DNA of 32,000 bases from an uncultured Planctomycetia bacterium (GCA_964536865.1 CAZHYN010000009.1:22674-54673); one strand, 5' to 3'. Counted from the first letter of the stretch, positions 53 to 30,889 are shown. The notes: generated by a model from the letters alone, not told the origin. Numbers and translations: made by a program.

Positions 53-69
53 AAAAGCTTCCTTTTTAT

Positions 70-1227: not shown

Positions 1228-1641
1228 TTAACTAAAATTACCCTGCCCTACTCCTTTGTACTCTTTGTAAGTTCTCAATCTCTCCCATTCCTGTTTCAAG
1301 TAATTATACTCCGCCTCAGCTCGTTTTAAGAAATAGTAGGTTAAACGAACTTTTTCTTTAAAACCCTTAGGAGTTAATATATAGCTTATCTTCTTAATCT
1401 TACCAGGACGATGGGAGAAATTTTTTGCCTTTATTAACCCTTTTTTTATAAGTTTCCGCAGAAGGTAATTGGTTTTGCCTAAGGAAATATTCAATTTTGA
1501 GGAAAGTTGGCGTTGAGTAACATCAGGGGATTTAGAAAGCTCAGAAAGAAGATAGAATACCTCTTCTTTTAGCTGATCTTTAGAATTCAGATTTAGAAGC
1601 CTTTTTCCCTCTATACCTGGTTTACAAATTTCTTGCTGCAT
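1228..1641 (-). CDS. Winged-helix (MarR-like, EPS-locus-associated type) transcriptional regulator, copy A
   Basis: 137-aa ORF. VTQRQLSSKLNISLGKTNYLLRKLIKKGLI is an HTH/wing pattern, followed by a C-terminal coiled-coil-like tail. The first 122 aa are identical to the ORF at 13615..14013. Confidence 0.6.
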   Translation of the reverse strand: MQQEICKPGIEGKRLLNLNSKDQLKEEVFYLLSELSKSPDVTQRQLSSKLNISLGKTNYLLRKLIKKGLIKAKNFSHRPGKIKKISYILTPKGFKEKVRLTYYFLKRAEAEYNYLKQEWERLRTYKEYKGVGQGNFS

Positions 1642-1772
1642 AAATACTACAAATTGTGTTCATATGATGAACAATATTCTATTACTACACAATAAATCTG
1701 TCAATATAGTAAAGAATGGCATAGTTTATCTACACCCTTACATACCTGGCGGGTGTGATTAGTTAAGCAAGT
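1277..1772. repeat. 496-bp direct repeat, copy A (matches 13649..14144)
   Basis: Base-by-base reading shows no mismatch with 13649..14144. Covers most of the regulator gene, its promoter and the GC-rich upstream palindrome. Confidence 0.9.
1657..1704 (-). promoter_or_regulatory. Sigma70-like promoter of the regulator gene plus a 17-bp palindromic candidate operator
   Basis: Minus strand: TTGACA (1704..1699), 17-nt spacer, TAGAAT (1681..1676). Palindrome TGTTCAT-ATG-ATGAACA at 1657..1673 sits over the predicted transcription start, 16 nt upstream of the ATG. Confidence 0.5.
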
Positions 1773-1778
1773 CTACAC
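1741..1778. repeat. GC-rich palindromic upstream motif, copy 1 of 3
   Basis: CATACCTGGCGGGTGTGATTAGTTAAGCAAGTCTACAC. Related copies at 9941..9978 and 14113..14144. Lies 36 nt upstream of the -35 box. Confidence 0.7.
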
Positions 1779-1947
1779 ATTTTTGGTGCACCAGTGACAA
1801 GAGCACCAGTGCACCAGTTTTATTGTAGCAATCTTCCAATAACAGGTTTCGCTTTCTTTCTGTTTTTGGCTTTAATAGCAATTGTAAGTTGACAAAACAA
1901 GTATTGCTTGATCTGTAAACTTACATACAAGAAGACTCTGGAGAAGT

Positions 1948-3282
1948 TTAAAATTCAAAATCCTCAAGGTCATATACTAAAAATCCTTTTTTTCTTAATA
2001 TTTCTTTATTCTCTATTCTTTTTGCTATCAGGCCCCAAAACTTCTTTTTGAAATTTTTCTTTATAACTTCTGTCTTTTCTTTTAACTTTACCAAAATATT
2101 TTCCGCCTCTTTATTTTTTAATTCTTTCCATTTACATTCAAAAAAACCTATTTTATTTTTACCTGTTGTAACTATATCAATCTCATAAGAAGTCCCTTTC
2201 TCTTTTCCCCATTGTTTACCGATTTTTATAAATTCAAAAGGTAAGTATTTTCTTTTCTCGATAAGAAACTCCATAGATATTTTCTCAAAGACATACCCTA
2301 AATATTGATTGTATTCTTTTTTTATCTCTCCAGCAGAAAAAATTCCCTCTTCAATAAAGGTAAGATTGGGATAAATAAATCTGAACCAGAAACTTAAAAA
2401 GTTATCTTTAAGATAATATCTTCCTTTTCTTGACTTTGTTGATCCTAATATAGGAATTCTTTTTTCTATAAATTCAGTCTCTATTAAGTTTTTCAGATAA
2501 GGAGTAATATCAGCACCTTTTAGTCCTATATAATTTTTGATTTCTCCTAATTTAGTATTTCCTAAAGCAATTGCCTCCAGTATTTTTTTATAGGTGCTTG
2601 TATCTTTAAACTCATATTTCATAAGAAAATCTATCTCTGTTTTTAGAAATGTATCTATTTTTTTTATTTCTTTATCCAGCCACCTCCAGAAAGGATATTC
2701 TATTTTGTCTAAATAAAAAGGGATACCGTCGCTGAATCCATAGATTTCTATCAGTTCTTCCTTAGAGGCCTGGGGAAAGAAATCTTTTATCTGAAAAATT
2801 TTTAATGGTTTTAGTTTTATTTCCCCTGTTTTTCTTCCAAATAAAGGAGCCTGATAACTTAAGACTTTACTTTCCATTAAAGATATAGATGAACCTAAAA
2901 GAATAAGTTTTGTGTGGGAATCTTTTAATATAGTATCAACTATTCTTTGAAAAAGAGAGACTATTTTGGGATTCTCTTTTATTAAATTAGGAAACTCATC
3001 TATGATAATTATTTTATTTTTCAAGAAATTAAATAAAGCCTCCCAATCTGATTGAACATATTTTAGCTGAGGGAAATTTTTTGAGGCTACTGCTTTAAAT
3101 TTTCTTAAATTATTTTCTTCTGTGGCTAAGTAGTAAATGAAATTTTTATTACGGACACTTTCTAAAGAAAGAGCGGTTTTTCCTATACGTCTTCTTCCAT
3201 AAATAATATATAATTCAAATTTTTTACTTTTTAGTTTTTCTCTTAAAGCTTCCAGTTCCTTTTCTCTATTTATAAATTTCAT
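1948..3282 (-). CDS. AAA+ ATPase, archaeal-type (Arch_ATPase + DUF234-like, COG1672-like); cassette A1
   Basis: 444-aa ORF. N-terminal FINREKELEAL, Walker A GRRRIGKT, Walker B IIIIDEF. Length and layout are typical of this family. Confidence 0.75.
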   Translation of the reverse strand: MKFINREKELEALREKLKSKKFELYIIYGRRRIGKTALSLESVRNKNFIYYLATEENNLRKFKAVASKNFPQLKYVQSDWEALFNFLKNKIIIIDEFPNLIKENPKIVSLFQRIVDTILKDSHTKLILLGSSISLMESKVLSYQAPLFGRKTGEIKLKPLKIFQIKDFFPQASKEELIEIYGFSDGIPFYLDKIEYPFWRWLDKEIKKIDTFLKTEIDFLMKYEFKDTSTYKKILEAIALGNTKLGEIKNYIGLKGADITPYLKNLIETEFIEKRIPILGSTKSRKGRYYLKDNFLSFWFRFIYPNLTFIEEGIFSAGEIKKEYNQYLGYVFEKISMEFLIEKRKYLPFEFIKIGKQWGKEKGTSYEIDIVTTGKNKIGFFECKWKELKNKEAENILVKLKEKTEVIKKNFKKKFWGLIAKRIENKEILRKKGFLVYDLEDFEF

Positions 3283-3304
3283 AATTTAGATTATCCTAAT
3301 TTAG

Positions 3305-3332
3305 ATTATATAAATTATAAAAAGGTTGTCAA
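3305..3332 (-). promoter_or_regulatory. Near-consensus sigma70 promoter of ATPase A1
   Basis: Minus strand: TTGACA (3332..3327), 16-nt spacer, TATAAT (3310..3305). AGGA ribosome-binding site about 8 nt before ATG 3282. The leader carries a direct repeat of AATTTAGATTA x2. Confidence 0.5.
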
Positions 3333-3396
3333 GGCTCTCTCCTTTATATAAAACTATTTTATCCCTGTACAAAAAACAATCTTTTTTACACAACTT

Positions 3397-3764
3397 TCAG
3401 AAAGAGATTTAAACATTCTCAAATTCTTAAGAATATTGGAATAGTTTTTGTTAATCATTATCACTTTATCCAGCAAAATCCTACTTTTTCATAAAACTGG
3501 AGTTATGCAAAAGATTCCTGGGAATTCTTAAGACAATTCTTCCATCAGGTAACTGATAAAAAACTCTTTCTCCAACACAAAAAACATTGGGCAAACCTAA
3601 TTTTCTGTTTTCTGCTTGCGCTTTTCTTACAGCTTTGGTAAATATTGTAAGTATTTCTATCATCTCTTGATAAATAGTTTTAGGCTTCTGCCTTTTTTTT
3701 CATCCCTTCTCCTTTTTCCTGGCAATATAGATAAAAATCTTTTAAAATTTTCCTCATCTATTAT
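3397..3764. repeat. 368-bp direct repeat, copy A' (matches 14200..14566 apart from one 1-nt indel)
   Basis: Read by eye. The only difference seen is GGAATAGTTTTTG versus GGAATATTTTTG. Covers the 60-aa ORF and the 3' part of the upstream Phd-like ORF. Confidence 0.9.
3481..3663 (-). CDS. 60-aa conserved small protein (possible toxin-antitoxin component), copy A
   Basis: Identical to 14283..14465. In copy B its ATG overlaps the stop of the upstream ORF (ATGA). No family recognised. Confidence 0.45.
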   Translation of the reverse strand: MIEILTIFTKAVRKAQAENRKLGLPNVFCVGERVFYQLPDGRIVLRIPRNLLHNSSFMKK

Positions 3765-3821
3765 AGTATAATCTTCCTTTTCTCCACATGCTACTAAAAA
3801 TGGGTATAATAAATAATTCAC
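3660..3821 (-). pseudogene. 5'-truncated copy of the Phd/YefM-like ORF seen intact at 14462..14704
   Basis: The frame reads (V)NYLLYPFLVACGEKEDYTIIDEENFKRFLSILPGKRRRDEKKGRSLKLFIKR. It opens just after a TGA and lacks about 27 N-terminal residues present in copy B. Confidence 0.45.
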
Positions 3822-3863
3822 TCTTCATCTTGAACAACTCAACATTTATTCCTGCACCCTCCT

Positions 3864-5063
3864 TCAATAAAGAAAACCAAAAAGCCATAAGGGAATCCTG
3901 TTTTTAAATCCCACAATTATATCATCTACTGCTAAAAAAGTATCTTGAGAGCCTTTAAACTTTTTCTCTTTACCTCCAACTTCAAATGATATTCCTTTAC
4001 TATCTACAAAATCTACTTTATCAGAATAATATAGTTTTTTCAAAACTCCTACCTGATTAAGAAAGAATGTCTCTCTAATGTTTCCCTTCTCTATACTAAA
4101 ACCTTTCTCTTGTTCAATAAGGTAAAAAAGATTACTGTTTTCTAAATATATCTTTTGAGGTTTACGCAATAAACTAAATCCTTTTGCTTTTGAATAGAGT
4201 AAAATAAATAAACCTGCTTTTTGAAGTTCCTCAATATAAGTATAAATGTATTCCTTGGAAATTCCTAACTGTGAACTTATCTTAGAAATGTTAGGAATAA
4301 AAGGTTGAGAGGTGGCTACTAAGTAAAAAAGTTTTTTTAAATTATAGATTGTGAAGTGTTTAATATTAAAAAGCGAGGGTATATCTTCGTAGAATATTTT
4401 TTCTATTACATTACCTAATTTATTATAGAAGGATTCAATCCCTTCCTTAAAAAAGGGATAATAACCATATTTTAGATATTCCCTAAAGTATTTTAGAACA
4501 GGAAGTTGTGAACTGACCTCATCTGCCAATTTTATATGTTCTTTGGGCAGTTCCTTAAAATTAATGGACTTGAATTGCTTCTTTAGACGCAAAACTAAAT
4601 ATTCTCTGAAAGAAAGCCCCCTTAAATTATAAAAAACTGCTCTACGAGAAAGGTCTCCTTTTCCTTTTAAAATACCTATACTTGAACTCCCTGAAAATAT
4701 TATCTTTTTTTTAGGAAATGAATCATAAATATTCTTTAATTCTATTTGCCAATCAGGATATTTGTGGATTTCATCTATAAGAAGACCTTTTCCTCCAAAT
4801 TTGAAAAACTCCTCGGCTATATTATATAATCCTCTATTTATCACGTTTATATTATCTGCGGAAAGGTATAGACAATCCTGAGGAGTTCTAAAATTATGCA
4901 GATAATACTGTAAAAGTAAAGTAGTTTTACCTACTCCCCTTGCTCCTACAATCCCTATAAGACGATTACCCCAATTTATTTTTTCAAAAAGGTATCTTCT
5001 ATAAAAGAATTTTTCTACCTCCTTAATAAGTGACAACTGAATTTCTATAAATTTCTCTATCAT
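3864..5063 (-). CDS. AAA+ ATPase (AAA_14-like subfamily 2); cassette A2
   Basis: 399-aa ORF. Walker A GARGVGKTT, Walker B LLIDEIH, GSSS...DLSRRA...LSFREYL block, C-terminal IPLWLFGFLY. Paralogue of 12210..13403. Confidence 0.75.
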   Translation of the reverse strand: MIEKFIEIQLSLIKEVEKFFYRRYLFEKINWGNRLIGIVGARGVGKTTLLLQYYLHNFRTPQDCLYLSADNINVINRGLYNIAEEFFKFGGKGLLIDEIHKYPDWQIELKNIYDSFPKKKIIFSGSSSIGILKGKGDLSRRAVFYNLRGLSFREYLVLRLKKQFKSINFKELPKEHIKLADEVSSQLPVLKYFREYLKYGYYPFFKEGIESFYNKLGNVIEKIFYEDIPSLFNIKHFTIYNLKKLFYLVATSQPFIPNISKISSQLGISKEYIYTYIEELQKAGLFILLYSKAKGFSLLRKPQKIYLENSNLFYLIEQEKGFSIEKGNIRETFFLNQVGVLKKLYYSDKVDFVDSKGISFEVGGKEKKFKGSQDTFLAVDDIIVGFKNRIPLWLFGFLY

Positions 5064-5086
5064 AAGATTCCTTATATGTAAAGTAT

Positions 5087-5115
5087 AGTTTACTATTTTT
5101 GATAAAATCCGTCAA
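5087..5115 (-). promoter_or_regulatory. Sigma70-like promoter of ATPase A2
   Basis: Minus strand: TTGACG (5115..5110), 17-nt spacer, TAAACT (5092..5087). AAGGA ribosome-binding site before ATG 5063. Confidence 0.4.
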
Positions 5116-5425
5116 CTACAATTTACTCTCATATACTCTGGCTATCTCTTTTAGTTCTATCACTCCAGTTACTATCTACAGCGATAATCTCTGTTTTATC
5201 TTGAGGATAGATTAAATCTCATTAAGCAGTTTTCTATGTTTTTCTTCATCTCTGAAAACCTACCTCTTGTCAATAAAAACTTCTTTATTTTGTTTTTCTA
5301 CTTTATTTTATATTCTTTTAATGGTATTTAAGCCATTTATCTCTTCATTTCACTAAGGAGACAATTTTGTCCCTTTATTAAAACAGTTATTTCAACTCCT
5401 GGAGTTGTGTCTTCACATTTGGCAT

Positions 5426-5653
5426 TCATCTACTTATCAGATAATACCCTGCTCCACCAGTAACAAGAACAGTTGGAGGTTGGAAGTTGGAGGTTTGATG
5501 TTTGAGGTTGGATGATTGACGTTTGATGATTTGGGTTGATAAAACAAAATCTTCTGATTTAGGAAATTTCTTAGAAAGGTTGTAAATCTCCTTAACTAGA
5601 TTATTGGCTAACTTATATACTTCTAAATTTTCAAAATTATATTTTTGATACAT
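5426..5653 (-). pseudogene. Truncated four-helix-bundle (23S rRNA intervening-sequence protein family) gene, fused to heptamer repeats and to a fossil SDR N-terminus
   Basis: MYQKYNFENLEVYKLANNLVKEIYNLSKKFPKSEDFVLSTQI matches the N-terminal half of this family. The frame then runs into heptamer-repeat DNA and ends in TVLVTGGAGYYLISR, a decayed Rossmann start. The ATG at 5671 in the ORF track lies inside the repeat array, so 5653 is the more likely start. Confidence 0.6.
5472..5540. repeat. Heptanucleotide tandem array (about 10 units, GTTGGAG/GTTTGAT type)
   Basis: GTTGGAG GTTGGAA GTTGGAG GTTTGAT GTTTGAG GTTGGAT GATTGAC GTTTGAT GATTTGG GTTGAT, read directly. Confidence 0.85.
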
Positions 5654-5656
5654 AAT

Positions 5657-5705
5657 TCTAACATCTAACATCTAACATCCAACATCCAACATCTAACATC
5701 TAATC
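5657..5705. repeat. Heptanucleotide tandem array (7 units, TCTAACA/TCCAACA), inverted relative to 5472..5540
   Basis: TCTAACA x3, TCCAACA x2, TCTAACA, TCTAATC. The reverse complement TGTTAGA/TGTTGGA matches the unit of the other array. Confidence 0.85.
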
Positions 5706-5803
5706 AGCCCTAAATATTCCTGCTTCCCCTATCTTTTCCACTTTTGCGCAAAACTGGAATTCTTTCTGCCATTTCTGCCTCTTTCCTACCTACTACCTCC
5801 TGT

Positions 5804-7120
5804 CTACTGCCTACTATCTACTGTCCGCAGTAGCCATTTCCACAAAGGAATGAATTTTATTTTTATCTTGTTAATATTCAATTCTTCTTCATAATCCCAG
5901 GTAATTATTGACAAATTTTTACATTTTAATAAAGAGCTTGCTTTTTTTAAAAAATCTATTTCTTTTTTCTCCATCTCCTCTATTGTATTTATAAAACTAA
6001 CTTGAATTAAATTTTTAATTTCAGAACCTTCCTTTATCAAAAAATCTATCTCCCTTTGCTGATGGTCTTTGTAATAGTAAATTTCCCAATTATTTTGCCA
6101 GTAACTCTTTCTTCTTAAAAGCTCTACAGCTACCAGATTCTCCATAAGTTTTCCTATATTTTCAGAAATTTTAAAAGAAATAACATCTGCCATTGCTGTA
6201 TCAATACAATAAATCTTTTTGGGAGCAATTTCCTGCTGTTTCAGTTTTGGGGAGTATCTTTCGAGAACAAAGAGTAAATAGGAATCTTCTAAAGCCCCCA
6301 ACCAATTCTTTAAAGTATGCACATCTTTTATCTCAAATATATGAGAAAGTTTTCTCATCGTAAATTCAGAAGAAATGTTTGAAATCAGGTATCTGGCAAC
6401 TCTTTTAAAAGTTTCTTTTCTTTTAATTTTATATCTTTTTAAAATATCTTTTTCAATTATATCGGCATAAATTCGAGAAAGTATTTCTCTACCTAATATA
6501 TAAACTTCAGGAAAACCTCCAATTTTTATATACTCTTCTAAAAAACTTTTTATCTGGGCTATCTCAGAAACAGAATAAAAAGTATCTTTTTCAATTTTAA
6601 ATCCTTTATAATCTAAAAACTCTCGGAAACTAAAAGGAAATAGATTAAAATCAATGTATCTTCCTGTTAGATGTGTAGAAAGTTCTCCAGAAAGTAATTT
6701 AGAATTACTCCCTGTAATTATCAGGCTTTTAGTTCTTCTTAATCTATTTACAAATAACTCCCATTTTTCAACATTCTGGGGCTCATCTAAAATCATTCTT
6801 TCTATTTTTCCATAAAGCTCATAGAATGCCTGTAAAATTTTATCTAAATCTTCTGTTTTTATATCTGCTAATCTTTCATCGTCAAAATTAATATAGGCAA
6901 AAGCTTTATCTGATAAAGAAGAAAAAATCTGCCAAGAAAAGATAGACTTGCCACATCTTCTTACACCTAAGATTGCCAGAATATTAGGGTGGAAAAGAAA
7001 TTTTTTTAATCTATTCTTTTCTGGTTCTCGCTCTATAATTTTGCTCTTTTTAAATTTCTCCTCTATCTCTTCTTTTTGAGAAATAATCACTTTTTTAAGT
7101 ATTTCTACATTCATAACCAC
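5804..7120 (-). CDS. AAA+ ATPase (AAA_14 + DUF4143-like, COG1373-like); cassette A3
   Basis: 438-aa ORF. Walker A GVRRCGKS, Walker B ILDEPQ, ITGSNSKLL...LTGR...PFSFREFL, C-terminal KFIPLWKWLL. Paralogue of 8554..9828. The last few codons run into CTACTNN heptamer-like repeats (5790-5825). Confidence 0.8.
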   Translation of the reverse strand: MVMNVEILKKVIISQKEEIEEKFKKSKIIEREPEKNRLKKFLFHPNILAILGVRRCGKSIFSWQIFSSLSDKAFAYINFDDERLADIKTEDLDKILQAFYELYGKIERMILDEPQNVEKWELFVNRLRRTKSLIITGSNSKLLSGELSTHLTGRYIDFNLFPFSFREFLDYKGFKIEKDTFYSVSEIAQIKSFLEEYIKIGGFPEVYILGREILSRIYADIIEKDILKRYKIKRKETFKRVARYLISNISSEFTMRKLSHIFEIKDVHTLKNWLGALEDSYLLFVLERYSPKLKQQEIAPKKIYCIDTAMADVISFKISENIGKLMENLVAVELLRRKSYWQNNWEIYYYKDHQQREIDFLIKEGSEIKNLIQVSFINTIEEMEKKEIDFLKKASSLLKCKNLSIITWDYEEELNINKIKIKFIPLWKWLLRTVDSRQ

Positions 7121-7152
7121 ATATTTTTTATAAAAGTTTGCAGTTTCAATTT

Positions 7153-7181
7153 ATTATACCTTCATAATTTTACCTCTACAA
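7153..7181 (-). promoter_or_regulatory. Sigma70-like promoter of ATPase A3
   Basis: Minus strand: TTGTAG (7181..7176), 17-nt spacer, TATAAT (7158..7153). Confidence 0.35.
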
Positions 7182-7267
7182 GTAATTTTTGTCCCAAATT
7201 ATTACGATTATCATAACCTTATCTTCTTCGCCTCCCTGAGGCAGATGGTTTCTCAATCTTCTATTCC

Positions 7268-7445
7268 CTACCTTCCTAATTTCTTCTTACACTCCCCTTT
7301 CAGCAGCCATTTCCATAAAGGAATGAATTTTATTTTTTTACCTTTAAATTTATCTTCTGCTTCGTAATCCCAGGTTATTTTAATAAGTTGTCACTATTAA
7401 GTTCTTTACTGGCTTTAATGAAGAGGTGATTTCTCTTTCCTTAAT
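7268..7445 (-). pseudogene. 3' fossil of a further COG1373-like ATPase gene
   Basis: 7301-7376 is nearly identical at DNA level to the 3' end of 8554..9828. It encodes ITWDYEAEDKFKGKKIKFIPLWKWLLKGECKKKLGR-stop. The upstream part (REITSSLKPVKNLIVTTY-stop) is out of frame and stopped. Confidence 0.65.
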
Positions 7446-7470
7446 GGATATTTGCCTTAATGGATATTTG
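7439..7470. repeat. Perfect 16-bp tandem duplication (CCTTAATGGATATTTG x2)
   Basis: Read directly, at the upstream edge of the ATPase fossil. Confidence 0.9.
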
Positions 7471-7555
7471 GAGACAAAACTTCCAAAAGGAGATCTCGCT
7501 TCCGCTCTAAATGTTCTCCTGCATTGAAGAGATAGCCCTTCACTTTCCAAGAGTC

Positions 7556-8023
7556 TCAGAAGGTTTGCCTTCTACGGCCCTCTTTGCCTTCTTCGTTCAG
7601 CTTATCCTTTACCAATAAATCTATTGACATACCCCATAAAATCATAAAAGTCGCCCAGCCGGTTTTGTAAAATCTCGTATATTTTTTTAAGTCTAAATCA
7701 ACGTATTCATGCACAAGAATATTTCTTAATCCTGCCATACCACGAATGGTTTTAGCAAATTCAGAAGGAATTATTTCCCTCTCCCCTAACTTATCAATAA
7801 TATCTACATAATCTTCAATTTGATTTTCTCCTATAGAGGCTAAAATATGATTACCCACATCAAAAATAATTTGAATTGATAGTTGCAATCCGTGACAAAT
7901 TAACCACTGCTTGCCTAAGGATGAGGAAAAATCTTTCCAGGGAATATCTCTGTTTTTCTCTAATTCTTTCAAGTAGATACTTAATTCCTGAAACTTCTTT
8001 TCAATTACTTCCTTATCAATCAT
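7556..8023 (-). CDS. hepT: HEPN (DUF86) RNase toxin HepT, frameshifted after the catalytic motif
   Basis: GLRNILVHEY is the R-x4-H-x-Y motif. After the A7 run (T-run 7682..7688 on the plus strand) the annotated frame gives an atypical tail. The adjacent frame gives LKKIYEILQNRLGDFYDFMGYVNRFIGKG-stop, ending at 7602, which looks like a canonical HepT C-terminus. Confidence 0.8.
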   Translation of the reverse strand: MIDKEVIEKKFQELSIYLKELEKNRDIPWKDFSSSLGKQWLICHGLQLSIQIIFDVGNHILASIGENQIEDYVDIIDKLGEREIIPSEFAKTIRGMAGLRNILVHEYVDLDLKKYTRFYKTGWATFMILWGMSIDLLVKDKLNEEGKEGRRRQTF

Positions 8024-8065
8024 TTTCCCCTCCCCTTTTTTTGCTCCATTAAAGAAGGTAGTCCG

Positions 8066-8461
8066 CTAACGCGATTTAAGCAGATATTTATAATCGTTAT
8101 ATCTATTAATTGTATCTATCTGAAACTTAATGCGTTTTCTTTCGTCTTGACTATAGATAATTTTTCCGAAATATAAAATACGGTGCCTTAAGAGAGGATT
8201 TGCTTCATCAAGAATTACCAAATCGACATTATTTGTTTTTAACAGCTGAACTAAATCTGCTAATATTTCTGACTTATATCCATAAGGGTAAATCTTTTCT
8301 TTAATTCTATCTCTGTCTATAAGTAAGGCAATATCAATATCACTTAAGGGGTTCATCCTTCCCCGGGCTAAAGAGCCAAATACATAAGCAACCTCAACTT
8401 CGGGATGCATTTTGAAATACTCTTTTAATATTTCTTGAACTTCATTAATATTTCTTACCAT
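8066..8461 (-). CDS. mntA: Minimal nucleotidyltransferase antitoxin MntA
   Basis: VFGSLARGRMNPLSDIDIALL is the GSxxRG...DxD pol-beta NTase signature. Lies directly upstream of the HEPN gene (42-nt gap). Confidence 0.85.
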   Translation of the reverse strand: MVRNINEVQEILKEYFKMHPEVEVAYVFGSLARGRMNPLSDIDIALLIDRDRIKEKIYPYGYKSEILADLVQLLKTNNVDLVILDEANPLLRHRILYFGKIIYSQDERKRIKFQIDTINRYNDYKYLLKSR

Positions 8462-8553
8462 CTTAATGGCTATTGACTTTCGGAGTCAGCTCTTTACATT
8501 TGACTACACCTACGCGGTGTAAGAGGTTCTTCGGTTTTCTACCCACCATCTTT

Positions 8554-9828
8554 TCACAACTCCTTTCCTTCCAGCAGCCACCTCCATAAAGGGATGAATT
8601 TTATTTTTTTACCTTTAAATTCATCTTCTGCTTCGTAATCCCAGGTAATAATTGATAGATTATTGCACTTCAATTCTTCACTTGCCTCAAATAAAGATTT
8701 TATTTCTCTTTTCCTAACTTCAAAATTACTTATTTCATAACAAGTCTGCATTAATTCTTCAATCTCTGCTTTTTTTAAAACAAAATCAACTTCTTTTTTA
8801 TTTCTTGTTTGATAATAAAAAACATCTCTATTTAATCTATAACCCCTTCTTAAAGTTTCAACAAAAACCAGATTTTCCATTAGTCTTCCTGTATTTTGAG
8901 AAAACCTGAATGCTTTTGCCAGAATAAAACCATTATTAACAAGATAAATCTTTCTGGGAGACTTAATCTGCTCTTTTACTTTAAAAGAAAACCTATCCAG
9001 TGGGAAAAAGAGATAAGCTTCTTCAAGATATTTTAAATATTTCTGAAGTGTGTTTGTGCTTCTGAATTTTAAAATATTTTTTAACTTATTAAAACTGAAC
9101 TCAGAACAAAAATTACTTATTAAATAAACTGCCAAATCATAAATTTCTTGAGAAAATCTTACTCTGTATCTTTTTACTACATCTTTAAATAAGATAGCAT
9201 CAAAAAGTGTCTCTAAATAAGTTTCTGCAGGCAAATTCTTTAAAACTACTTCTGGAAAACCACCTTTTTTAAGATATTCATCTAAATAACCTAAAATTTT
9301 ACCTTTGACTTCAGGTATTTTTAAATATTCTTTTTTCACCTTAAAATTTTTTGCTACCAGAAATTCTCTGAAACTGAAAGGAAAAATCTCTATAGGGATA
9401 TATCTGCCTGTTAAAACTGTTCCTAATTCTTTACTTAAAAGTTTTGCATTGGAACCTGTCAGAATCAGATTATAGCCTCTTCTTTGAAGTTTGTTGACAA
9501 AAATTTCCCATTTTTCTAAATTTTGAATCTCATCAAATAAAATATATTTACTTTCAGAATAAACCTCAAAAATTGCCTTTACAATCTCATCATAATTTTT
9601 TATCTTTAAAAGCTGGTCGTCATCAAAATTTAAATAGGCAAAATTTTTATCCTTTAAAAGAAGAAAAGAAAAGATAGATTTGCCTGCTCTTCTTACTCCT
9701 GTAATTACCTTTATTAAATCACTATCTAAATACTTTTTAGCAAAATCAAGTTTTTCTCTTAAAATGTAATCCTGGGAAAGGATTTTTTCCTGTTCTAATT
9801 TATGCTGTAAAACAATATTCTTAATCAT
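8554..9828 (-). CDS. AAA+ ATPase (AAA_14 + DUF4143-like, COG1373-like); cassette A4
   Basis: 424-aa ORF. Walker A GVRRAGKS, Walker B ILFDEIQ, LTGSNAKLL...LTGR...PFSFREFL, C-terminal KFIPLWRWLL. Confidence 0.8.
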   Translation of the reverse strand: MIKNIVLQHKLEQEKILSQDYILREKLDFAKKYLDSDLIKVITGVRRAGKSIFSFLLLKDKNFAYLNFDDDQLLKIKNYDEIVKAIFEVYSESKYILFDEIQNLEKWEIFVNKLQRRGYNLILTGSNAKLLSKELGTVLTGRYIPIEIFPFSFREFLVAKNFKVKKEYLKIPEVKGKILGYLDEYLKKGGFPEVVLKNLPAETYLETLFDAILFKDVVKRYRVRFSQEIYDLAVYLISNFCSEFSFNKLKNILKFRSTNTLQKYLKYLEEAYLFFPLDRFSFKVKEQIKSPRKIYLVNNGFILAKAFRFSQNTGRLMENLVFVETLRRGYRLNRDVFYYQTRNKKEVDFVLKKAEIEELMQTCYEISNFEVRKREIKSLFEASEELKCNNLSIITWDYEAEDEFKGKKIKFIPLWRWLLEGKEL

Positions 9829-9872
9829 AATATTTAACTGAACAAAAAAATACTTTTTTGTTCACTATACTG

Positions 9873-9901
9873 ATTTTAGTGCAAAAAATTCACTCTGTCA
9901 A
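9873..9901 (-). promoter_or_regulatory. Sigma70-like proximal promoter of ATPase A4
   Basis: Minus strand: TTGACA (9901..9896), 17-nt spacer, TAAAAT (9878..9873). The leader holds an AT-rich inverted repeat, GAACAAAAAA/TTTTTTGTTC (about 9839-9864). Confidence 0.45.
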
Positions 9902-9940
9902 TTAAAAACTCCTTAAATCTTACTTCCTATACCTTCTTTG

Positions 9941-9978
9941 CACACCCGGCGGGTGTGATTGGTTAAGCAAGTCTACAC
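9941..9978. repeat. GC-rich palindromic upstream motif, copy 2 of 3 (perfect 8+1+8 palindrome)
   Basis: CACACCCG-G-CGGGTGTG (9941..9957) followed by ATTGGTTAAGCAAGTCTACAC. Lies 39 nt upstream of the -35 box of the A4 promoter. Confidence 0.7.
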
Positions 9979-10068
9979 CGAAATAAGCTGAGGAGGTTTT
10001 CTTTCCCACCATTGTTTGATAATTTCCCGTAGAATCTGTTTCATAACTTAATCAATATAGAACGATTT

Positions 10069-10115
10069 TTGACAAAATTGTTCTATAATTATAGATTTTT
10101 TGCTGGTTTTGTCAA
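10069..10115. promoter_or_regulatory. Back-to-back promoter-like elements (one per strand) sharing a TATAATTATA core
   Basis: Minus strand: TTGACA (10115..10110), 16 nt, TATAAT (10093..10088). Plus strand: TTGACA (10069..10074), 17 nt, TAGATT (10092..10097). Confidence 0.35.
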
Positions 10116-10149
10116 TATAATATTGCCACAGATAGGAATTCTCTAAAGC

Positions 10150-11301
10150 TTAGGACTTCCCTGTTTCCACCCCTGGGGTGGAAACAGGCTTTAGAATTTT
10201 CAGATTATCCCATTCTATATACTTAAAGTATTTTTTCTTATACTCAGCAGAGGGAATGTAAAAGAAAAAATTATCAGAATAGGTATTTACGGTAAAATAA
10301 GTTTCACCTCTTAAGTAATCTAAAACTTTCTCTAAGTCATAAGCAACAAAAGGAATTCTTCTTTCAATTAATGCTTTAACCATCTTAATAAAATCCTGGG
10401 CATAAGCGTAATTGATTACCCTTAAACCATATCTCCAATTATTATAGGAAGAAGGCGGATATAAATAGATGCCGTGCCTGTGCCAGCTAAAGACAATCTC
10501 AAAAGGATGTGAACCAAGCTCTCTTCCGTTTTTATACCAGTCTAAGAATTCTTTTTTGCTCGCCCAATTTTTAATACCAAGCATACCTCCATCCCTGCCA
10601 TCAGCAAATTTTTTATACATCTGGAGAGGACTAAATCCTGCCACTTTCTTACCATATGCAGCCTTATAACAGATGCTTGCTACCTCAAGATATTCATTTA
10701 GACTGCATCCCTTTAGTTTGATATTCTTCTTTAAAAGAGTGTTATAATCTCTTTCTATTTTTTCTTTCTCTCTCAAAGACAAAACCTTATCAAATATATA
10801 TTTACCTTTAATTCTTCCTGTGCGTAAATCATAAGGAATTATCTTTTTTAAAATCTCTGCACCTTTTCTTTCTATTAACCGGGTAAATCTTAAAGCCTCC
10901 TGAAAAATCTTCTTATAGATTTTTTCTGCAACCTCTTTTCCTTTACTTATCCTTAAACTTCCCAGGCTAAAAAAATAACAAAAATAATCTCTCTTATACT
11001 TTATAATCTTAAAAGGAAGGGCTACTACTTTGCCACTTCTTTTTGAAGGAAGGTAGAAATCTTCCCATCTTTTCTCTAACTTATCTTTATAAGAAGGATA
11101 AAATCTGCTGGTAAGCTCTTTTACTAAACTACATATTTGGGTATTCTTTATTAAACGAGGGTTTAATGAATCTTTTAAACAATACTCTAATTGGTAGAAA
11201 TTGATTCCGGGATTGATTTTTACCCCGTTAGAAAATAAAGTTCTTCTACGGGGTTTATTTCCATTTTTCTTTAATAAATATCTTTGCAATATTCTTAGCA
11301 T
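10150..11301 (-). CDS. 383-aa orphan protein, no recognisable domain
   Basis: Long uninterrupted ORF. ATG 11301 lies two codons after an in-frame TAG and 47 nt inside the upstream exonuclease gene. No motif I can place; the most conserved-looking block is GSHPFEIVFSWHRHGIYLYPP. Confidence 0.6.
   Translation of the reverse strand: MLRILQRYLLKKNGNKPRRRTLFSNGVKINPGINFYQLEYCLKDSLNPRLIKNTQICSLVKELTSRFYPSYKDKLEKRWEDFYLPSKRSGKVVALPFKIIKYKRDYFCYFFSLGSLRISKGKEVAEKIYKKIFQEALRFTRLIERKGAEILKKIIPYDLRTGRIKGKYIFDKVLSLREKEKIERDYNTLLKKNIKLKGCSLNEYLEVASICYKAAYGKKVAGFSPLQMYKKFADGRDGGMLGIKNWASKKEFLDWYKNGRELGSHPFEIVFSWHRHGIYLYPPSSYNNWRYGLRVINYAYAQDFIKMVKALIERRIPFVAYDLEKVLDYLRGETYFTVNTYSDNFFFYIPSAEYKKKYFKYIEWDNLKILKPVSTPGVETGKS
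10160..10188. repeat. 29-nt perfect palindrome (14-bp GC-rich arms)
   Basis: CCTGTTTCCACCCC-T-GGGGTGGAAACAGG, inside the last 13 codons of the orphan ORF. On the plus strand it is followed by CTTTAGAATTTTC. Confidence 0.85.
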
Positions 11302-11785
11302 CGTCTAAAGCACGATGATGAGTTCCTTCAAATTTAATTCCACAAATTTCAAGTGCCTTCTTTAACCCTACAGGCTTTGTTCTCCTCTTTTTAGCAAATT
11401 CATGCTTTATGCTTCTATGGGTTATAAAAGGATATTTAATATTATGGAACTGGCAATCTTTCATTAGCTGTTTTTTATCATAATAACCCCAGGAACAAAG
11501 AGTAATATCCTCAATTTTGCATTTAGCTGTTTGAATTACCCAATTGATGAATTTTTCAAATACTACAGGAAAAATCTCTGCGTTATCAACCTCTTCCTGA
11601 GTGATAGAGGTTAAATCCTTACAAAACTTGGACAGAATAGGATTCTTTACCGGCCTTACAAAACTTTGATATTCTCCCAAAATTTTATAATTTCTATCTA
11701 TCAAAACTGCTCCAATTTCTATAATCTCCTTTTCCTCTTTTGGATACTGCCAGCAGGTAGCCTCTAAATCAATTATCAGATACAC
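11255..11785 (-). CDS. DEDDh 3'-5' exonuclease (ERI-1/KapD/RNase T-like)
   Basis: 176-aa ORF with a GTG start. IIDLEATC (Exo I), SWGYYDKKQL (Exo II-like), GTHHRALDDAKN (Exo III with the H of DEDDh). Confidence 0.8.
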   Translation of the reverse strand: MYLIIDLEATCWQYPKEEKEIIEIGAVLIDRNYKILGEYQSFVRPVKNPILSKFCKDLTSITQEEVDNAEIFPVVFEKFINWVIQTAKCKIEDITLCSWGYYDKKQLMKDCQFHNIKYPFITHRSIKHEFAKKRRTKPVGLKKALEICGIKFEGTHHRALDDAKNIAKIFIKEKWK

Positions 11786-11948
11786 TTTATTTCAATTCTT
11801 TAATAAGTTTTCTTTTAAGCCAATGAGCACTGAATGAAATCTTTTTTGTTCCCTTTTAATTCTGATCCTTTAAATATATTTGATGCTTTCTGGATTAAGC
11901 TTTTAAATTTTTTAGGAATTTCTTTTTTATTCATAATCTCTTTTAGGG

Positions 11949-12083
11949 CTATTCCGAAGGATCCACCTCTGGTGGAAAGGTTTTCTCTGCTCTTAATCTC
12001 TCCCATTCCTGTTTCAAGTAATTATACTCCGCCTCAGCTCGTTTTAAGAAATAGTAGGTTAAACGAACTTTTTCTGCTATCAT
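11949..12083 (-). pseudogene. 3' fossil of the MarR-like regulator gene (third copy)
   Basis: 11985..12075 matches the 3' ends of the regulator genes at DNA level. It reads MIAEKVRLTYYFLKRAEAEYNYLKQEWERLRAEKTFPPEVDPSE-stop. The tail runs into a GC-rich mini-hairpin (11962..11976). Confidence 0.7.
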
Positions 12084-12209
12084 AAATCTTACAGGTTCAC
12101 TCTCCAATTTCTAATATAAAACTATCCTTCTTATCCTTCACCTCATTAAATTCATCTGTGATACACCACAATCAAACTAAAAAAGGGATAAGCATATTAA
12201 TTAAAAATG

Positions 12210-13403
12210 TTAACTTAAAAAACCCAAAATAAAAAGAGGCCGATATAAACCATCCATTCTATCAGAATCAGTAAAAATTAGTTTTCTATCTGCCTTAAAA
12301 CCTTTAAACTGAGTTCTACCTTTACCTTTCCCTCCAATCTCAATCACTAATTTTTCCCCTTTATAAGATACTACAAAATCAGGCGTTTTCTCTCCTCTTG
12401 TTGATTTTAAATAATATATTTTTTCATCTGCCATCCTCATCATCTCTACAAAGAAATCTTCCCTTAAAGCACCTAAATTTTCTTTGAACTCAGTATACAA
12501 TAATCTATAAGGGAGACTCATTAATATTTTAGGTTCCTTTAATACATTTGTTCCTTTAGGGAATACCTGATGTAAAATAAATGCTTTTTCTAATAAATTC
12601 ACATATTGCTCGGCTTTATAGCGAGTTATTCCACAATTACGTGCAATGGAAGAATAATTTATTCCTTCTGTTTCTGATTTTCCAATAAAAGAAAGCATTT
12701 TCTCTATAATTTCTAATTCTTTTACTTTTAAATCAAAAATATAGGGAATATCTTTATAAATAACCTTAGAACAAACATTTCTAAGTATATCCAAAACCAA
12801 TGGTTCCTCTAATGAAAAAGGATAAATTCCTCCTCGCAAATAATCATAAAATTTCTCACTATAAGAAAATATTTCTCTATCAAAATTTTTATTTAAAATA
12901 TCTTCCAAACTAAGTTTAGGAAAATTCACATTATATTTAAAAAATAAATATTCTCTGAAAGAGAAAGGATAAAGTTTCTTTAATAAAACTCGTCTTGAAA
13001 GATCATATTGAGTTTGCGAAAGAATAAAAGCTACCGAACTTGTAAAAATAATTCTTAAATCTAAATAATCATAAATTTTCTTTAAAGTTCCCTCAAATTC
13101 AGGATAAAAATGCACCTCATCTAAAAGTAATAAATTTATTTTAAAATCCTCTTTGGCTTTTTTAGCAACTTCGAATAAGTCTTCTTTTATTGCGTCAAGA
13201 GAAATATAAAGGGAGTTTTTGTATTCTTTTCTTATTTGTCTTAGAAGAACAGTTTTCCCAGCTCCTCTTGGTCCGGTAATACCTATAAAATGCTTGCCTT
13301 TTTCTTTTTGAAGATGAAAAAACAAAAATCTCCTCTTCGAATATTTTTCTATCGCTTTGAGCGCTAACCTATCGTATTCCAGTATTTTTTTAAAATCTAC
13401 CAT
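12210..13403 (-). CDS. AAA+ ATPase (AAA_14-like subfamily 2); cassette A5
   Basis: 397-aa ORF. Walker A GPRGAGKT, Walker B LLLLDEVH, DLSRRV...PFSFREYL, C-terminal RPLFILGFLS. Paralogue of 3864..5063. Confidence 0.75.
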   Translation of the reverse strand: MVDFKKILEYDRLALKAIEKYSKRRFLFFHLQKEKGKHFIGITGPRGAGKTVLLRQIRKEYKNSLYISLDAIKEDLFEVAKKAKEDFKINLLLLDEVHFYPEFEGTLKKIYDYLDLRIIFTSSVAFILSQTQYDLSRRVLLKKLYPFSFREYLFFKYNVNFPKLSLEDILNKNFDREIFSYSEKFYDYLRGGIYPFSLEEPLVLDILRNVCSKVIYKDIPYIFDLKVKELEIIEKMLSFIGKSETEGINYSSIARNCGITRYKAEQYVNLLEKAFILHQVFPKGTNVLKEPKILMSLPYRLLYTEFKENLGALREDFFVEMMRMADEKIYYLKSTRGEKTPDFVVSYKGEKLVIEIGGKGKGRTQFKGFKADRKLIFTDSDRMDGLYRPLFILGFLS

Positions 13404-13410
13404 CCTGTAA

Positions 13411-13458
13411 ATATCATTTTATACAATAATTATACAAAATGATATACATTATCGTCAA
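13411..13458 (-). promoter_or_regulatory. Sigma70-like promoter of ATPase A5, overlapped by a 35-bp palindrome
   Basis: Minus strand: TTGACG (13458..13453), 18 nt, TATAAT (13434..13429). Palindrome 13411..13445 has perfect 10-bp arms (ATATCATTTT/AAAATGATAT) and an ATAATTAT core, and it covers the -10 box and the start site. Confidence 0.45.
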
Positions 13459-13614: not shown

Positions 13615-14013
13615 TCAGAAAGTATATACTTTCTTTTGCTCTGCTCTTAATCTCTCCCATTCCTGTTTCAAGTAATTATACTCCGCCTCAGCTCGTTTTA
13701 AGAAATAGTAGGTTAAACGAACTTTTTCTTTAAAACCCTTAGGAGTTAATATATAGCTTATCTTCTTAATCTTACCAGGACGATGGGAGAAATTTTTTGC
13801 CTTTATTAACCCTTTTTTTATAAGTTTCCGCAGAAGGTAATTGGTTTTGCCTAAGGAAATATTCAATTTTGAGGAAAGTTGGCGTTGAGTAACATCAGGG
13901 GATTTAGAAAGCTCAGAAAGAAGATAGAATACCTCTTCTTTTAGCTGATCTTTAGAATTCAGATTTAGAAGCCTTTTTCCCTCTATACCTGGTTTACAAA
14001 TTTCTTGCTGCAT
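13615..14013 (-). CDS. Winged-helix (MarR-like) transcriptional regulator, copy B
   Basis: 132-aa ORF. The first 122 aa are identical to copy A; the C-terminal tail differs (AEQKKVYTF). Confidence 0.6.
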   Translation of the reverse strand: MQQEICKPGIEGKRLLNLNSKDQLKEEVFYLLSELSKSPDVTQRQLSSKLNISLGKTNYLLRKLIKKGLIKAKNFSHRPGKIKKISYILTPKGFKEKVRLTYYFLKRAEAEYNYLKQEWERLRAEQKKVYTF

Positions 14014-14144: not shown

Positions 14145-14199
14145 TAAATAATAGCAATTTTCACTCCTGGGATGAAAATTTGGTAACTTTATGCAAGTC

Positions 14200-14566
14200 T
14201 CAGAAAGAGATTTAAACATTCTCAAATTCTTAAGAATATTGGAATATTTTTGTTAATCATTATCACTTTATCCAGCAAAATCCTACTTTTTCATAAAACT
14301 GGAGTTATGCAAAAGATTCCTGGGAATTCTTAAGACAATTCTTCCATCAGGTAACTGATAAAAAACTCTTTCTCCAACACAAAAAACATTGGGCAAACCT
14401 AATTTTCTGTTTTCTGCTTGCGCTTTTCTTACAGCTTTGGTAAATATTGTAAGTATTTCTATCATCTCTTGATAAATAGTTTTAGGCTTCTGCCTTTTTT
14501 TTCATCCCTTCTCCTTTTTCCTGGCAATATAGATAAAAATCTTTTAAAATTTTCCTCATCTATTAT
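14200..14566. repeat. 367-bp direct repeat, copy B' (matches 3397..3764)
   Basis: See copy A'. Confidence 0.9.
14283..14465 (-). CDS. 60-aa conserved small protein, copy B
   Basis: Identical to 3481..3663. Its start overlaps the stop of the 80-aa ORF (ATGA). Confidence 0.45.
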   Translation of the reverse strand: MIEILTIFTKAVRKAQAENRKLGLPNVFCVGERVFYQLPDGRIVLRIPRNLLHNSSFMKK

Positions 14567-14704
14567 GGTATATTTTTTCTTTCCTCCATATGTTACTAAA
14601 AATGGAGTATCCCGAGAATTATTTATTAGAATCCACATATTGGCTAAATTTCTATAGACAATCCAGAAATTTCTAATACTTCTAACATCTCTTCTATAAA
14701 TCAC
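14462..14704 (-). CDS. 80-aa Phd/YefM-like small protein (tentative)
   Basis: SIRNFWIVYRNL...TPFLVTYGGKKKYTIIDEENFKRFLSIL follows the beta-alpha-beta-beta-alpha pattern of Phd/YefM antitoxins as I recall it, with a basic tail. Coupled by a 4-nt overlap to the 60-aa ORF. Confidence 0.4.
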   Translation of the reverse strand: MIYRRDVRSIRNFWIVYRNLANMWILINNSRDTPFLVTYGGKKKYTIIDEENFKRFLSILPGKRRRDEKKGRSLKLFIKR

Positions 14705-30604: not shown

Positions 30605-30889
30605 CTATCTGAATATAGCTTTTTTAAAAATATCTTTTTTAAGCCGGATATTAAAAACGGTGGTCCAGAAATTGAGAACTTTTTTAAACCAAACTCCCCT
30701 CCGAGGGTATCTTATTACTTTTTTAATATCTTTTTCAGGATAAAGTTTAAAAAGCAATTTCAAATCCTCCCAGGTTCCATAATTTAAAACCTGGGTGATG
30801 ATTTCATCTTTATCTTCTTCTAAATCCATTTTGGAAATATCATAGGACCATAGCACTTTCTGGAATTGTTTTGGCAATTTTTGAGCCAT
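30605..30889 (-). CDS. 94-aa small protein coupled to the AbiEii-like gene
   Basis: Starts 2 nt after the stop of the upstream NTase gene. VLWSYDISKMDLEEDKDEIITQVLNYGTWEDLKLL resembles small partner proteins of such NTases, but I cannot name the family reliably. Confidence 0.5.
   Translation of the reverse strand: MAQKLPKQFQKVLWSYDISKMDLEEDKDEIITQVLNYGTWEDLKLLFKLYPEKDIKKVIRYPRRGVWFKKVLNFWTTVFNIRLKKDIFKKAIFR

Follow-up and report, generated by a model that had tools for sequence, protein, structure and literature searches.

COG1373 and COG1672 are among the most numerous prokaryotic protein families whose role is known only as a candidate one. Both are represented in PADLOC, as PDC-S01 (AAA_14 plus DUF4143; COG1373) and PDC-S27 (ATPase_2 plus DUF234; COG1672, with 2qen of Pyrococcus abyssi), and surveys place both among the commonest 'defence' annotations in archaea, bacteria and rumen metagenome-assembled genomes (MAGs), where they are described as an ATPase plus PD-(D/E)XK. 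Defence surveys count the two families as 'systems' by tens of thousands, on candidate status alone. DUF4143 and DUF234 have been classed as PD-(D/E)XK (PMC3424549), COG1373 appears among mobilome-shared genes, and a literature search on DUF234 returned only DUF2345-type matches. Here we analysed a 32-kb window (32,000 nucleotides, CAZHYN010000009.1:22674-54673 of GCA_964536865.1) that carries five full-length ATPase genes of these two families, A1 to A5, in an island that interrupts a glycan locus. Positions are coordinates of the whole window, in which every gene lies on the minus strand, and numbers beginning with L denote the related contigs and loci that were compared. What is new here is direct evidence that single ATPase units move between diverged genomes; the cluster itself is a clear example of a known pattern, a variable island of candidate defence ATPases and toxin–antitoxin (TA) genes, and not a new kind of system. 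Like PDC-S01, A2–A5 are one-gene ATPases fused to a PD-(D/E)XK-superfamily domain, abundant and widely transferred, but A3 and A4 have QxC/S instead of ExK, A2 and A5 have ExGGK, and four copies from two clades occur together. A1 has the same architecture as PDC-S27 and is notable as a 1.7-kb unit that recurs, identical in sequence, in several genomic contexts.

The original prediction for this DNA had proposed five full-length ATPase genes in three subfamilies. All five open reading frames (ORFs) were located on the minus strand, exactly where it had placed them, and Pfam assignment of each protein agreed with the proposed subfamilies and domains:

1948..3282, minus strand: A1, COG1672-type AAA+ ATPase, Pfam ATPase_2 (2.7e-31) and DUF234 (8.3e-24)
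3864..5063, minus strand: A2, Pfam AAA_14 with a weak helix-turn-helix (HTH) match, winged helix, divergent DUF4143-type C-terminus
5804..7120, minus strand: A3, Pfam AAA_14 and DUF4143
8554..9828, minus strand: A4, Pfam AAA_14 and DUF4143
12210..13403, minus strand: A5, Pfam AAA_14 and DUF4143 (weaker, 4e-12), of the A2 clade

The encoded proteins are 397-444 aa long. The PADLOC PDC-S01 profiles matched A4 (5.4e-114) and A3 (1.6e-105), which they cover over full length, and more weakly A5 (6.2e-30) and A2 (6.4e-25); PDC-S27 matched A1 (2.4e-45), which also has a weak Pfam match to TniB and a C-terminus matching CARF_PDDEXK models. The description of the role of these families as essentially unknown holds in that their function is still a matter of inference, but the families were already recognised, as PDC-S01 for A2–A5 and PDC-S27 for A1. 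A2 itself has no direct Pfam DUF4143 match; because its homologues of about 50% identity carry DUF4143, and because the A2-family and A4-family profiles align with 99% probability over the AAA+ region, the lid and the winged helix, and further into the C-terminal domain, A2–A5 represent one architecture in two clades, A2/A5 and A3/A4. Pairwise identity is 32% over full length between A2 and A5 and 45% between A3 and A4, and A1 resembles the others only near the P-loop. A2 and A5 share the DLSRR motif and end in LFGFLY and ILGFLS, respectively, in agreement with the original prediction. Intact Walker A and Walker B motifs, claimed for all five, could be read directly from the translations: GRRRIGKT/IIIDEF in A1, GARGVGKT/LLIDEIH in A2, GVRRCGKS/MILDEPQ in A3, GVRRAGKS/ILFDEIQ in A4 and GPRGAGKT/LLLDEVH in A5. 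In A2–A5 they conform to GxxxxGK[ST] and hhhhDE, and both are invariant in the family alignments. The ATPase genes are under purifying selection and are not decaying, with dN/dS of 0.10-0.15 overall (0.10 for A2 against its L052 orthologue, 0.14 for A3 against L002).

The island extends between an epimerase gene (17388..18437) and a MarR_EPS–epimerase pair at the left end of the window. MarR_EPS, a winged-helix regulator, is present in two copies, both of which gave no match in exact look-ups:

1228..1641, minus strand: left MarR_EPS copy, TIGR04176 at 105 bits (NCBIfam cutoff 88), overlapping repeat R1
13615..14013, minus strand: right MarR_EPS copy, with a native-like 3' end, overlapping repeat R1

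The flanks hold sugar-nucleotide and envelope genes, among them epimerases, a DegT aminotransferase, two UDP-glucose dehydrogenases and LptD. In Omnitrophota (about 34 MarR_EPS-anchored loci) the usual order is UDP-glucose dehydrogenases, epimerases, DegT, MarR_EPS and epimerase, without the array. Because this order runs from DegT to MarR_EPS to epimerase, the island interrupts a glycan locus, and the gene order in these relatives thereby bears out what had been read from the window. MarR_EPS relatives are overwhelmingly from Candidatus Omnitrophota MAGs, and the closest named homologues of A2 and of a 383-aa protein of the island are from 'Omnitrophica bacterium 4484_70.1'; judged by these sequence affinities, the host is most likely an uncultivated bacterium of the Omnitrophota. 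The association of AAA_14 plus DUF4143 genes with surface-glycan loci recurs. Such a gene lies amid glycosyltransferase genes and beside a split GT4 gene in L052 (2257-3561; Omnitrophica 4484_70.1) and in L059 (1029-2297; a Nealsonbacteria MAG).

Comparison of presence and absence among related genomes showed that the ATPases are accessory; they were not found as conserved syntenic core genes. In the closest relative (L002, MarR 89%), A4 (95.7% amino acid identity) is directly followed by A3 (94.4%), with neither the gene fossil nor the MNT–HepT pair that separates them in the window. The 17.8 kb examined of that locus contain neither A1 nor A5; they carry other sugar genes, an AbiE pair and, on the opposite strand, an MNT/HepT pair. 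A4 likewise abuts A3, without MNT–HepT, in L064 and L066, and the A2 orthologue, 89% identical, is located in another locus. A1 occupies a sharply bounded unit, and direct repeats R1 and R2 bracket the array:

1733..3451, minus strand: A1 unit, 1,719 bp, made up of a 29-nt palindrome, the promoter, A1 and a 215-bp tail ending in a 41-nt motif
1273-1772 and 13645-14144, minus strand: repeat R1, 500 bp, 99.8% identical
3385-3807 (left) and 14188-14610 (right), minus strand: direct repeat R2, 424 bp, 96.9% identical
3385..3807, minus strand: contents of the left R2 copy, a zeta-toxin remnant (3660..3821), a 60-aa ORF (3481..3663) and a junction element

The exact A1 protein was found in 12 contigs from several metagenomes, and six contigs (L064-L069) share the A1 unit at 99.6-99.8% identity. 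In five of the six its coding sequence (1,335 bp) is free of substitutions, and the remaining one has a single substitution; the MarR gene next to the unit in L068 is 92.3% identical. Upstream, the unit is flanked either by the zeta remnant and 60-aa ORF or by different sequence after AbiEi or other genes, and downstream either by the MarR promoter or by an A2-like 3' fragment. Because only 43 bp lie between R2 and R1 at the right-hand repeats, the A1 slot is empty there, and the slot is thus known in three alleles: A1, empty (43 bp), and MNT/HepT on the opposite strand (L002). A further empty join, the fourth at this slot, was seen in L067. Insertion of A1 by a transposon was rejected, as the junctions show 43 bp replaced by 1.6 kb, without target duplication or inverted ends.

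Identities of other units are similarly discordant with those of their surroundings. In L098, A4 is 95.7% identical in amino acids (94.4% in nucleotides) against 58-76% for six backbone proteins, glycan enzymes included; in L064, the exonuclease (exo) of the island, A4, A3 and A1 are 97.7-100% identical in amino acids against 71% nucleotide identity for the backbone remnant. A4-type proteins of 65-78% identity occur in MAGs labelled CPR, Atribacterota, Elusimicrobiota, Cyanobacteria and Armatimonadota, where the genes are solitary, amid housekeeping or glycosyltransferase genes, and homologues of the ATPases were found on 304 plasmids. Viral contigs rarely carry the A4 family (18 loci in 2.9 million contigs of IMG/VR). 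A phage origin was rejected on this rarity, on the absence of the junction motifs from IMG/VR and on BFVD structural matches that are generic AAA+ proteins. Together, these results show that genomes acquire, lose and exchange the units as discrete segments of about 1.3-1.7 kb that carry their own promoters, and that the island is very probably accessory and horizontally exchanged. The cassette-like mobility that had been proposed gains support, beyond what the sequence alone could give, from the discordant identities of the A1 unit and A4 and from the varied flanks of the A1 unit, but neither dedicated mobility machinery nor a regular cassette site was found. The locus offers a natural set of five paralogues together with defined empty and filled alleles.

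Genes that move in this way might be selfish, or parts of mobile elements that spread by their own transfer and retention (homing-like or addiction-like, or as TniB/TnsC-like helpers) with no defence benefit to the host. Such genes could show what is seen for A1, which is free of substitutions across diverged backgrounds, and for A4-type genes, which are near-identical between genomes, retain 65-78% identity across phyla and have homologues on plasmids; each unit has its own promoter, TA genes are co-resident, TnsC is among the structural matches, A1 has its weak TniB match, and the published phage test discussed below reported no protection. We nevertheless consider this explanation unlikely. 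No transposase, integrase, inverted terminal repeats or target duplications go with the units, and their breakpoints vary; the TnsC structural matches are no better than those to other AAA+ proteins; and purifying selection, together with solitary copies long kept amid housekeeping genes, fits a cellular function at least equally well.

AlphaFold models of A4 (pLDDT 89.3) and A2 (89.7) both comprise an AAA+ core, a helical lid and a winged helix. The C-terminal domain is alpha-beta-beta-beta-alpha-beta in the A4 model, with a conserved Asp on strand 2, and alpha-beta-beta-beta followed by a loop in place of the helix in the A2 model. The top Foldseek matches of A4 were 2qby_A (E 4e-8) and 2qby_B (2e-7), chains of Orc1/Cdc6 in complex with origin DNA, at probability 1.0 and with a TM score of only about 0.3, which reflects the domain arrangement; further structures matched in the PDB were 2qen, STAND NTPases (Avs4, Avs5, SAMD9), RFC and TnsC for A4, and RFC, DnaA and RuvB for A2. 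A1 matches the 2qen chain by sequence (1.5e-8), and no solved structure was matched by sequence by the AAA_14/DUF4143 proteins. The models thus predict an Orc1/Cdc6-like AAA+ module with a winged helix and a C-terminal domain of restriction-endonuclease fold.

We aligned the C-terminal domains of A1–A5 with canonical DUF4143 proteins from related loci, and compared their catalytic motifs:

canonical DUF4143 proteins (L006, L010c, L015, L023, L064_446): D...E-x-K
A1: D369...E382-C-K384 (..YEID369IV..FFE382CK384..), a canonical PD-(D/E)XK motif, the sole one among the five
A2/A5 clade (A2, A5, L010b): D...E-x-G-G-K, with D351...E361 in A2 and D...E-I-G-G-K in A5
A3/A4 clade (A3, A4, L052_434, L010a, L024): D...Q-x-C/S/A, with D...Q-V-S in A3 and D348...Q361-T-C363 in A4

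Across 39 aligned A3/A4-clade sequences, D348, Q361 and E375 never vary, and conservation of C363 and R374 is at least 90%. Because the replacement residues are conserved, the clade appears to have kept a role, albeit a different one, such as binding or altered chemistry. As to whether the C-terminal domains are nuclease-like, a question that the original prediction had raised, the models contain the endonuclease fold, but only A1 has the canonical residues. This large A3/A4 clade is the top PDC-S01 scorer and lacks canonical nuclease residues, so 'ATPase plus nuclease' cannot be assumed family-wide.

Archaeal Orc1/Cdc6 (2qby), the best structural match of A4, shares with it an AAA+ module followed by a DNA-binding winged helix. 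Sequence identity is 14-16%, however, A4 has an extra C-terminal endonuclease-fold domain, and the ATPase genes described here are multi-copy, exchanged and, by their distribution, non-essential, unlike vertically inherited origin genes. The STAND NTPases of Avs/AVAST systems likewise combine an NTPase switch and a restriction-endonuclease-type effector in one polypeptide, but in A1–A5 Pfam and the models give no C-terminal repeat sensor, the nuclease-fold domain is C-terminal (the reverse order), and the proteins are smaller (about 400-440 aa). A fold like that of Orc1/Cdc6, DnaA and RFC would also suit a housekeeping DNA transaction such as replication initiation, clamp loading or recombination, and the recurrent MarR_EPS and glycan association, with operator-like palindromes at the A4 and A5 promoters, would suit regulation of nearby glycan genes. 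Either role is highly improbable, and comparative data already largely refute both: five diverged copies share one island, presence varies among close relatives, homologues occur on plasmids, the genes diverge out of step with the backbone, and pseudogene remnants are present.

The reading we favour, with a probability of about 0.55 for the whole statement, conflict function included, is that the island is a variable, exchanged part of an exopolysaccharide or glycan locus stocked with ATPases that act in conflict. Because single self-promoted units are exchanged between diverged genomes under purifying selection, an accessory, conflict-type role fits better than a housekeeping one. A defence function of the ATPases, to which family membership, fold and context point, has a slightly better than even prospect. 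The island would then hold five self-contained one-gene ATPase units, one of PDC-S27 type and four of PDC-S01 type, serving, in conflicts with foreign DNA, as stand-alone DNA-sensing switches. A DNA feature or structure would be recognised and bound by the AAA+ module together with the winged helix, and ATP-dependent assembly would then activate the C-terminal domain. In A1 (D..ExK), and possibly in A2/A5 (D..ExGGK), the activated domain would cleave DNA; the A3/A4 clade (D..QxC/S) would more likely bind, clamp or mark than cut, acting as sensors or blockers. Diverged paralogues side by side would widen the target range.

Several points weigh against this reading. PADLOC 'PDC' entries are phage defence candidates that were released without test. 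In the one published test found, a PDC-S01 gene and a PDC-S27 gene were challenged in E. coli B with phages T7, T5 and T4, and the four systems reported protective include neither of them. The A3/A4 clade is without the canonical catalytic Glu and Lys, and the A2/A5 motif has unusual spacing; because of these noncanonical motifs, a nuclease mechanism should not be assumed for four of the five copies. As regards exchange, a broken Mutator-family transposase is the only recombinase among the scanned ORFs of the window, which contain no integrase (Phage_integrase) domain; neither target-site duplications nor terminal inverted repeats mark the A1 junctions; and the breakpoints do not share a single site, some joins falling away from the recurrent junction sequences. 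Across the repeats, segment order comes from the assembly alone, because independent contigs break there. AAA_14 ATPases lie within 1.2 kb of MarR_EPS in 7 of 11 cases against 2.15 expected under random placement (34 Omnitrophota loci, p ~0.002), which suggests that the MarR_EPS flank is a recurrent landing site, but the threshold in this statistic was picked post hoc and gene structure was ignored. Last, the taxonomic labels of MAGs can be wrong.

The breakpoints cluster at the MarR_EPS 3' end (three junctions at the same spot), at the 41-nt motif (three times) and at the 29-nt palindrome (twice):

1738..1778, 9938-9978 and 14110-14150, minus strand: three copies of the 41-nt motif GTGTAGACTTGCTTAACYAATCACACCCGCCRGGT..
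3415..3443 and 14218-14246, no strand assigned: two copies of the 29-nt imperfect palindrome TATTCCAATATTCTTAAGAATTTGAGAAT, the first of them at the left edge of the A1 unit

We infer, as the simplest reading, exchange by recombination between short shared intergenic sequences after DNA uptake, with no dedicated transposase or integrase. The 41-nt motif, which holds a hairpin-forming palindrome, CACACCCGCC(G/A)GGTGTG, is found at the right edge of the A1 unit, at the junction between a gene stub and A4, and upstream of both MarR copies; it also precedes MarR_EPS in L002, L067 and L068, with a weaker match in L003. Roles as operator, terminator or recombination junction are all conceivable. The 29-mer has an 11-6-11 layout, ATTCTCAAATT-CTTAAG-AATATTGGAAT on the plus strand, and is invariant in 11 copies from the window and related contigs; both flanks vary, and homology between contexts stops at its edges. 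An exact-match scan found it in 62 metagenome contigs (L072-L133). In about 15 of these it forms the last nine codons and stop (..ILKFLRILE*) of an intact ArsR-type gene of 91-103 aa, which lies on the opposite strand beside housekeeping genes, and in about 50 it is isolated in unrelated intergenic DNA. In several contigs the 29-mer recurs about every 60 nt in direct arrays whose linkers are related; a CRISPR repeat was ruled out, since the 'spacers' resemble each other. The 29-mer has no copy in IMG/VR, and neither it nor any other part of the window or of eight related loci gave an Rfam match. Even degenerate copies (up to 8 mismatches) are absent from the other junctions of the window, so the 29-mer cannot account for the whole array. 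It could be a recombination site, an operator, a REP-like repeat or a terminator.

In their clustering of accessory, TA and decayed mobile genes, with contents that differ between relatives, and in their co-oriented genes and cassette replacement at one slot, defence islands and hotspots and the arrays of sedentary integrons resemble this locus. Integron arrays differ from it: here there is no integrase and no attC at each junction, the cassettes are self-promoted, and breakpoints fall at several short repeats. A classical integron was rejected after RYYYAAC/GTTRRRY cores and a per-junction site were sought, since only the 41-nt (3x) and 29-nt (2x) sequences recur and no integrase is present; this attC search addressed sequence cores and repeats, structure-only attC sites lying outside its reach. 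A broader possibility is an integron-like or Xer/dif-module-like array in which a site-specific recombinase acts on the 29-nt palindrome, the 41-nt hairpin motif or both. The genes are indeed co-oriented with TA genes interspersed, the 41-nt motif stands at three junctions, and the 29-mer, invariant amid varying flanks, resembles an Xer/dif core. A cassette pattern is seen in L074 and L116: L074 (oriented, 1-3700) carries three TA cassettes (a DUF2283 pair, MNT/HepT and HicAB) split by long intergenic repeats composed of the hairpin CACAAAACAG-ATTCAAC-CTGTTTTGTG, the 29-mer and iterations of CTTCAAACCCGAC, and L116 has the L074 cassettes with flanks exchanged inside the repeat, which suggests that these cassettes are reshuffled. 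We consider such an array improbable, however, because in the window the 29-mer occurs just twice and the 41-mer three times, the window's cassettes are self-promoted, neither the window nor the examined part of L074 yielded an integrase or Xer gene, the 29-mer doubles as the 3' end of an ArsR-like gene and turns up in numerous unrelated settings, and homologous recombination would account equally well for the L116 exchange, which falls inside some 94 nt of common repeat. That the ATPase and TA units are cassettes of an undescribed Omnitrophota-like shuffling system, exchanged at short conserved intergenic sites, chiefly the 29-mer, is an idea to which we likewise give little credence. If true, it would make the array a cassette store with a logic like that of integrons or Acinetobacter pdif modules, with another site and self-promoted cassettes.

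The long repeats also raise the question of whether the dense array is partly an assembly artefact, with strain variants stitched across the 500-bp and 424-bp repeats. These repeats are 99.8% and 96.9% identical, the short-read contigs L001 and L070 end in or near them, and several alternative haplotypes of the locus exist in metagenomes. This concern touches only the position of A1 and is improbable even there. Independent ENA contigs from one sample reproduce the interior: L070 has 100% DNA identity to it, and on L001, where A2, A3, A4 and A5 are contiguous, A2, A4, A5, MNT, HepT, the 23S-IVP-type ORF (IVP) and the 383-aa protein (u383) translate identically, with one difference each in A3 and exo. 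A1 lies beside MarR and epimerase in L068, similar arrays occur in L064 and L066, and the alternative path through the repeats keeps all five genes in the island and shifts only A1.

Each gene had been said to have its own sigma70-like promoter. This is so for A1, A4 and A5, whereas A2 and A3 have only weaker matches, read by eye:

3332..3305, minus strand: A1 promoter-like site, TTGACA-16-TATAAT, 12/12
9901..9873, minus strand: A4 promoter-like site, TTGACA-17-TAAAAT, 11/12
13458..13429, minus strand: A5 promoter-like site, TTGACG-18-TATAAT, 11/12
9839..9864, minus strand: perfect A4 palindrome, arms of 11 bp, TGAACAAAAAA-gtat-TTTTTTGTTCA, stopping 10 nt short of the ATG
13411..13445, minus strand: perfect A5 palindrome with 10-bp arms, ATATCATTTT-15-AAAATGATAT, overlapping the -10 box

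Seven promoter matches of at least 11/12 were found in 17.5 kb, and six of the seven lie on the gene strand, in intergenic DNA and directly 5' of a start codon. The arm length of the A4 palindrome was matched by 1 of 300 shuffles. Lying between the -10 box and the start codon, the A4 and A5 palindromes could serve autoregulation by the proteins' own winged helices, or could form hairpins in the 5' untranslated region. A palindrome with 8-bp arms accompanies the promoter of the orphan stub described next.

Gene remnants are more numerous than the single fossil noticed in the original prediction, which is itself real and translates as an A4-like C-terminus (..ITWDYEAEDKFKGKKIKFIPLWKWLLKG..*):

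7268..7445, minus strand: fossil 3' end of an A4-like ATPase gene, 81% identical to 8567-8717 by self-BLAST
9973..10115, minus strand: orphan promoter (10115..10088, 12/12) and 23-codon stub (ATG at 10044), truncated at the 41-nt motif
11981-12075, minus strand: copy of the MarR_EPS 3' end, 95 bp, a remnant
11872-11931, minus strand: 5' remnant of a nucleotidyltransferase gene, its first 60 nt, intact in L064
5426-5671, minus strand: 81-aa ORF between A3 and A2, truncated 23S-IVP type, matching the first 37 of 106 profile positions of PF05635

The 23-codon stub, considered as a possible further (sixth or seventh) ATPase, had no homologue in the protein set compared.

The other genes of the island, with which the ATPase genes are interspersed, are as follows:

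7556..8023, minus strand: HepT, HepT-like (HEPN) by Pfam (2e-21)
8066..8461, minus strand: MNT, Polbeta/NTP_transf_2 by Pfam (4e-22), 42 bp from HepT
11255..11785, minus strand: exo, DEDDh (RNase_T) exonuclease by Pfam
10150..11301, minus strand: u383, 383-aa protein with no Pfam match, which with the exonuclease forms a separate accessory module
14826..15632, minus strand: 268-aa protein with no Pfam match, its N-terminus nucleotidyltransferase-like (GxAAxxxG...DIDI)
16033..17047, minus strand: broken Mutator-family transposase (PF00872) in two ORFs, at the upstream edge of the island

Of the TA modules said to be interleaved with the ATPases, MNT–HepT was verified and is, by its domain matches, an intact type VII TA pair. 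The small-ORF pairs at 3481..3821 and 14283..14704 were not verified as TA pairs: each is the truncated 3' remnant of a zeta-toxin gene plus a small ORF (60 or 75 aa) without a family match. A zeta-toxin-like kinase gene is intact in L067 (84-886, 192 aa, PF06414); its remnants in the window are at 3660..3821 and 14462-14704. A 58%-identical orthologue of the 268-aa protein follows MarR in L002.

The 383-aa protein has homologues that stand alone, measure about 350 aa and align by BLASTP over about 90% of the query; they occur in MAGs labelled Omnitrophota, Desantisbacteria, Methanoperedens, Altiarchaeia and Nanoarchaeota. In Methanoperedens the gene is preceded by a metallophosphoesterase gene, with integrase and PIN/YhcG genes nearby, and in L064 it is a pseudogene. 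The possibility that the exonuclease and the 383-aa ORF are one frameshifted gene was ruled out by the free-standing homologues and by the metallophosphoesterase neighbour in Methanoperedens.

Outside the island, the window has a further accessory module, an AbiEii-like nucleotidyltransferase (30892..31527, minus strand) and a DUF6922 protein (30605..30889, minus strand), whose neighbours are housekeeping genes (ROK kinase, transaldolase, LptD). Short hairpins that resemble each other (TTTCACTTTTTCGCAAAAGTGAAA / TTCCAGTTTTGCGCAAAAGTGGAA) come after stop codons at 17340-17387 and 5740-5790 of the window and recur in contigs that bear the 29-mer (L074 at about 1175-1210, L082 and L112); they may be a family of intergenic repeats or terminators common to these organisms.

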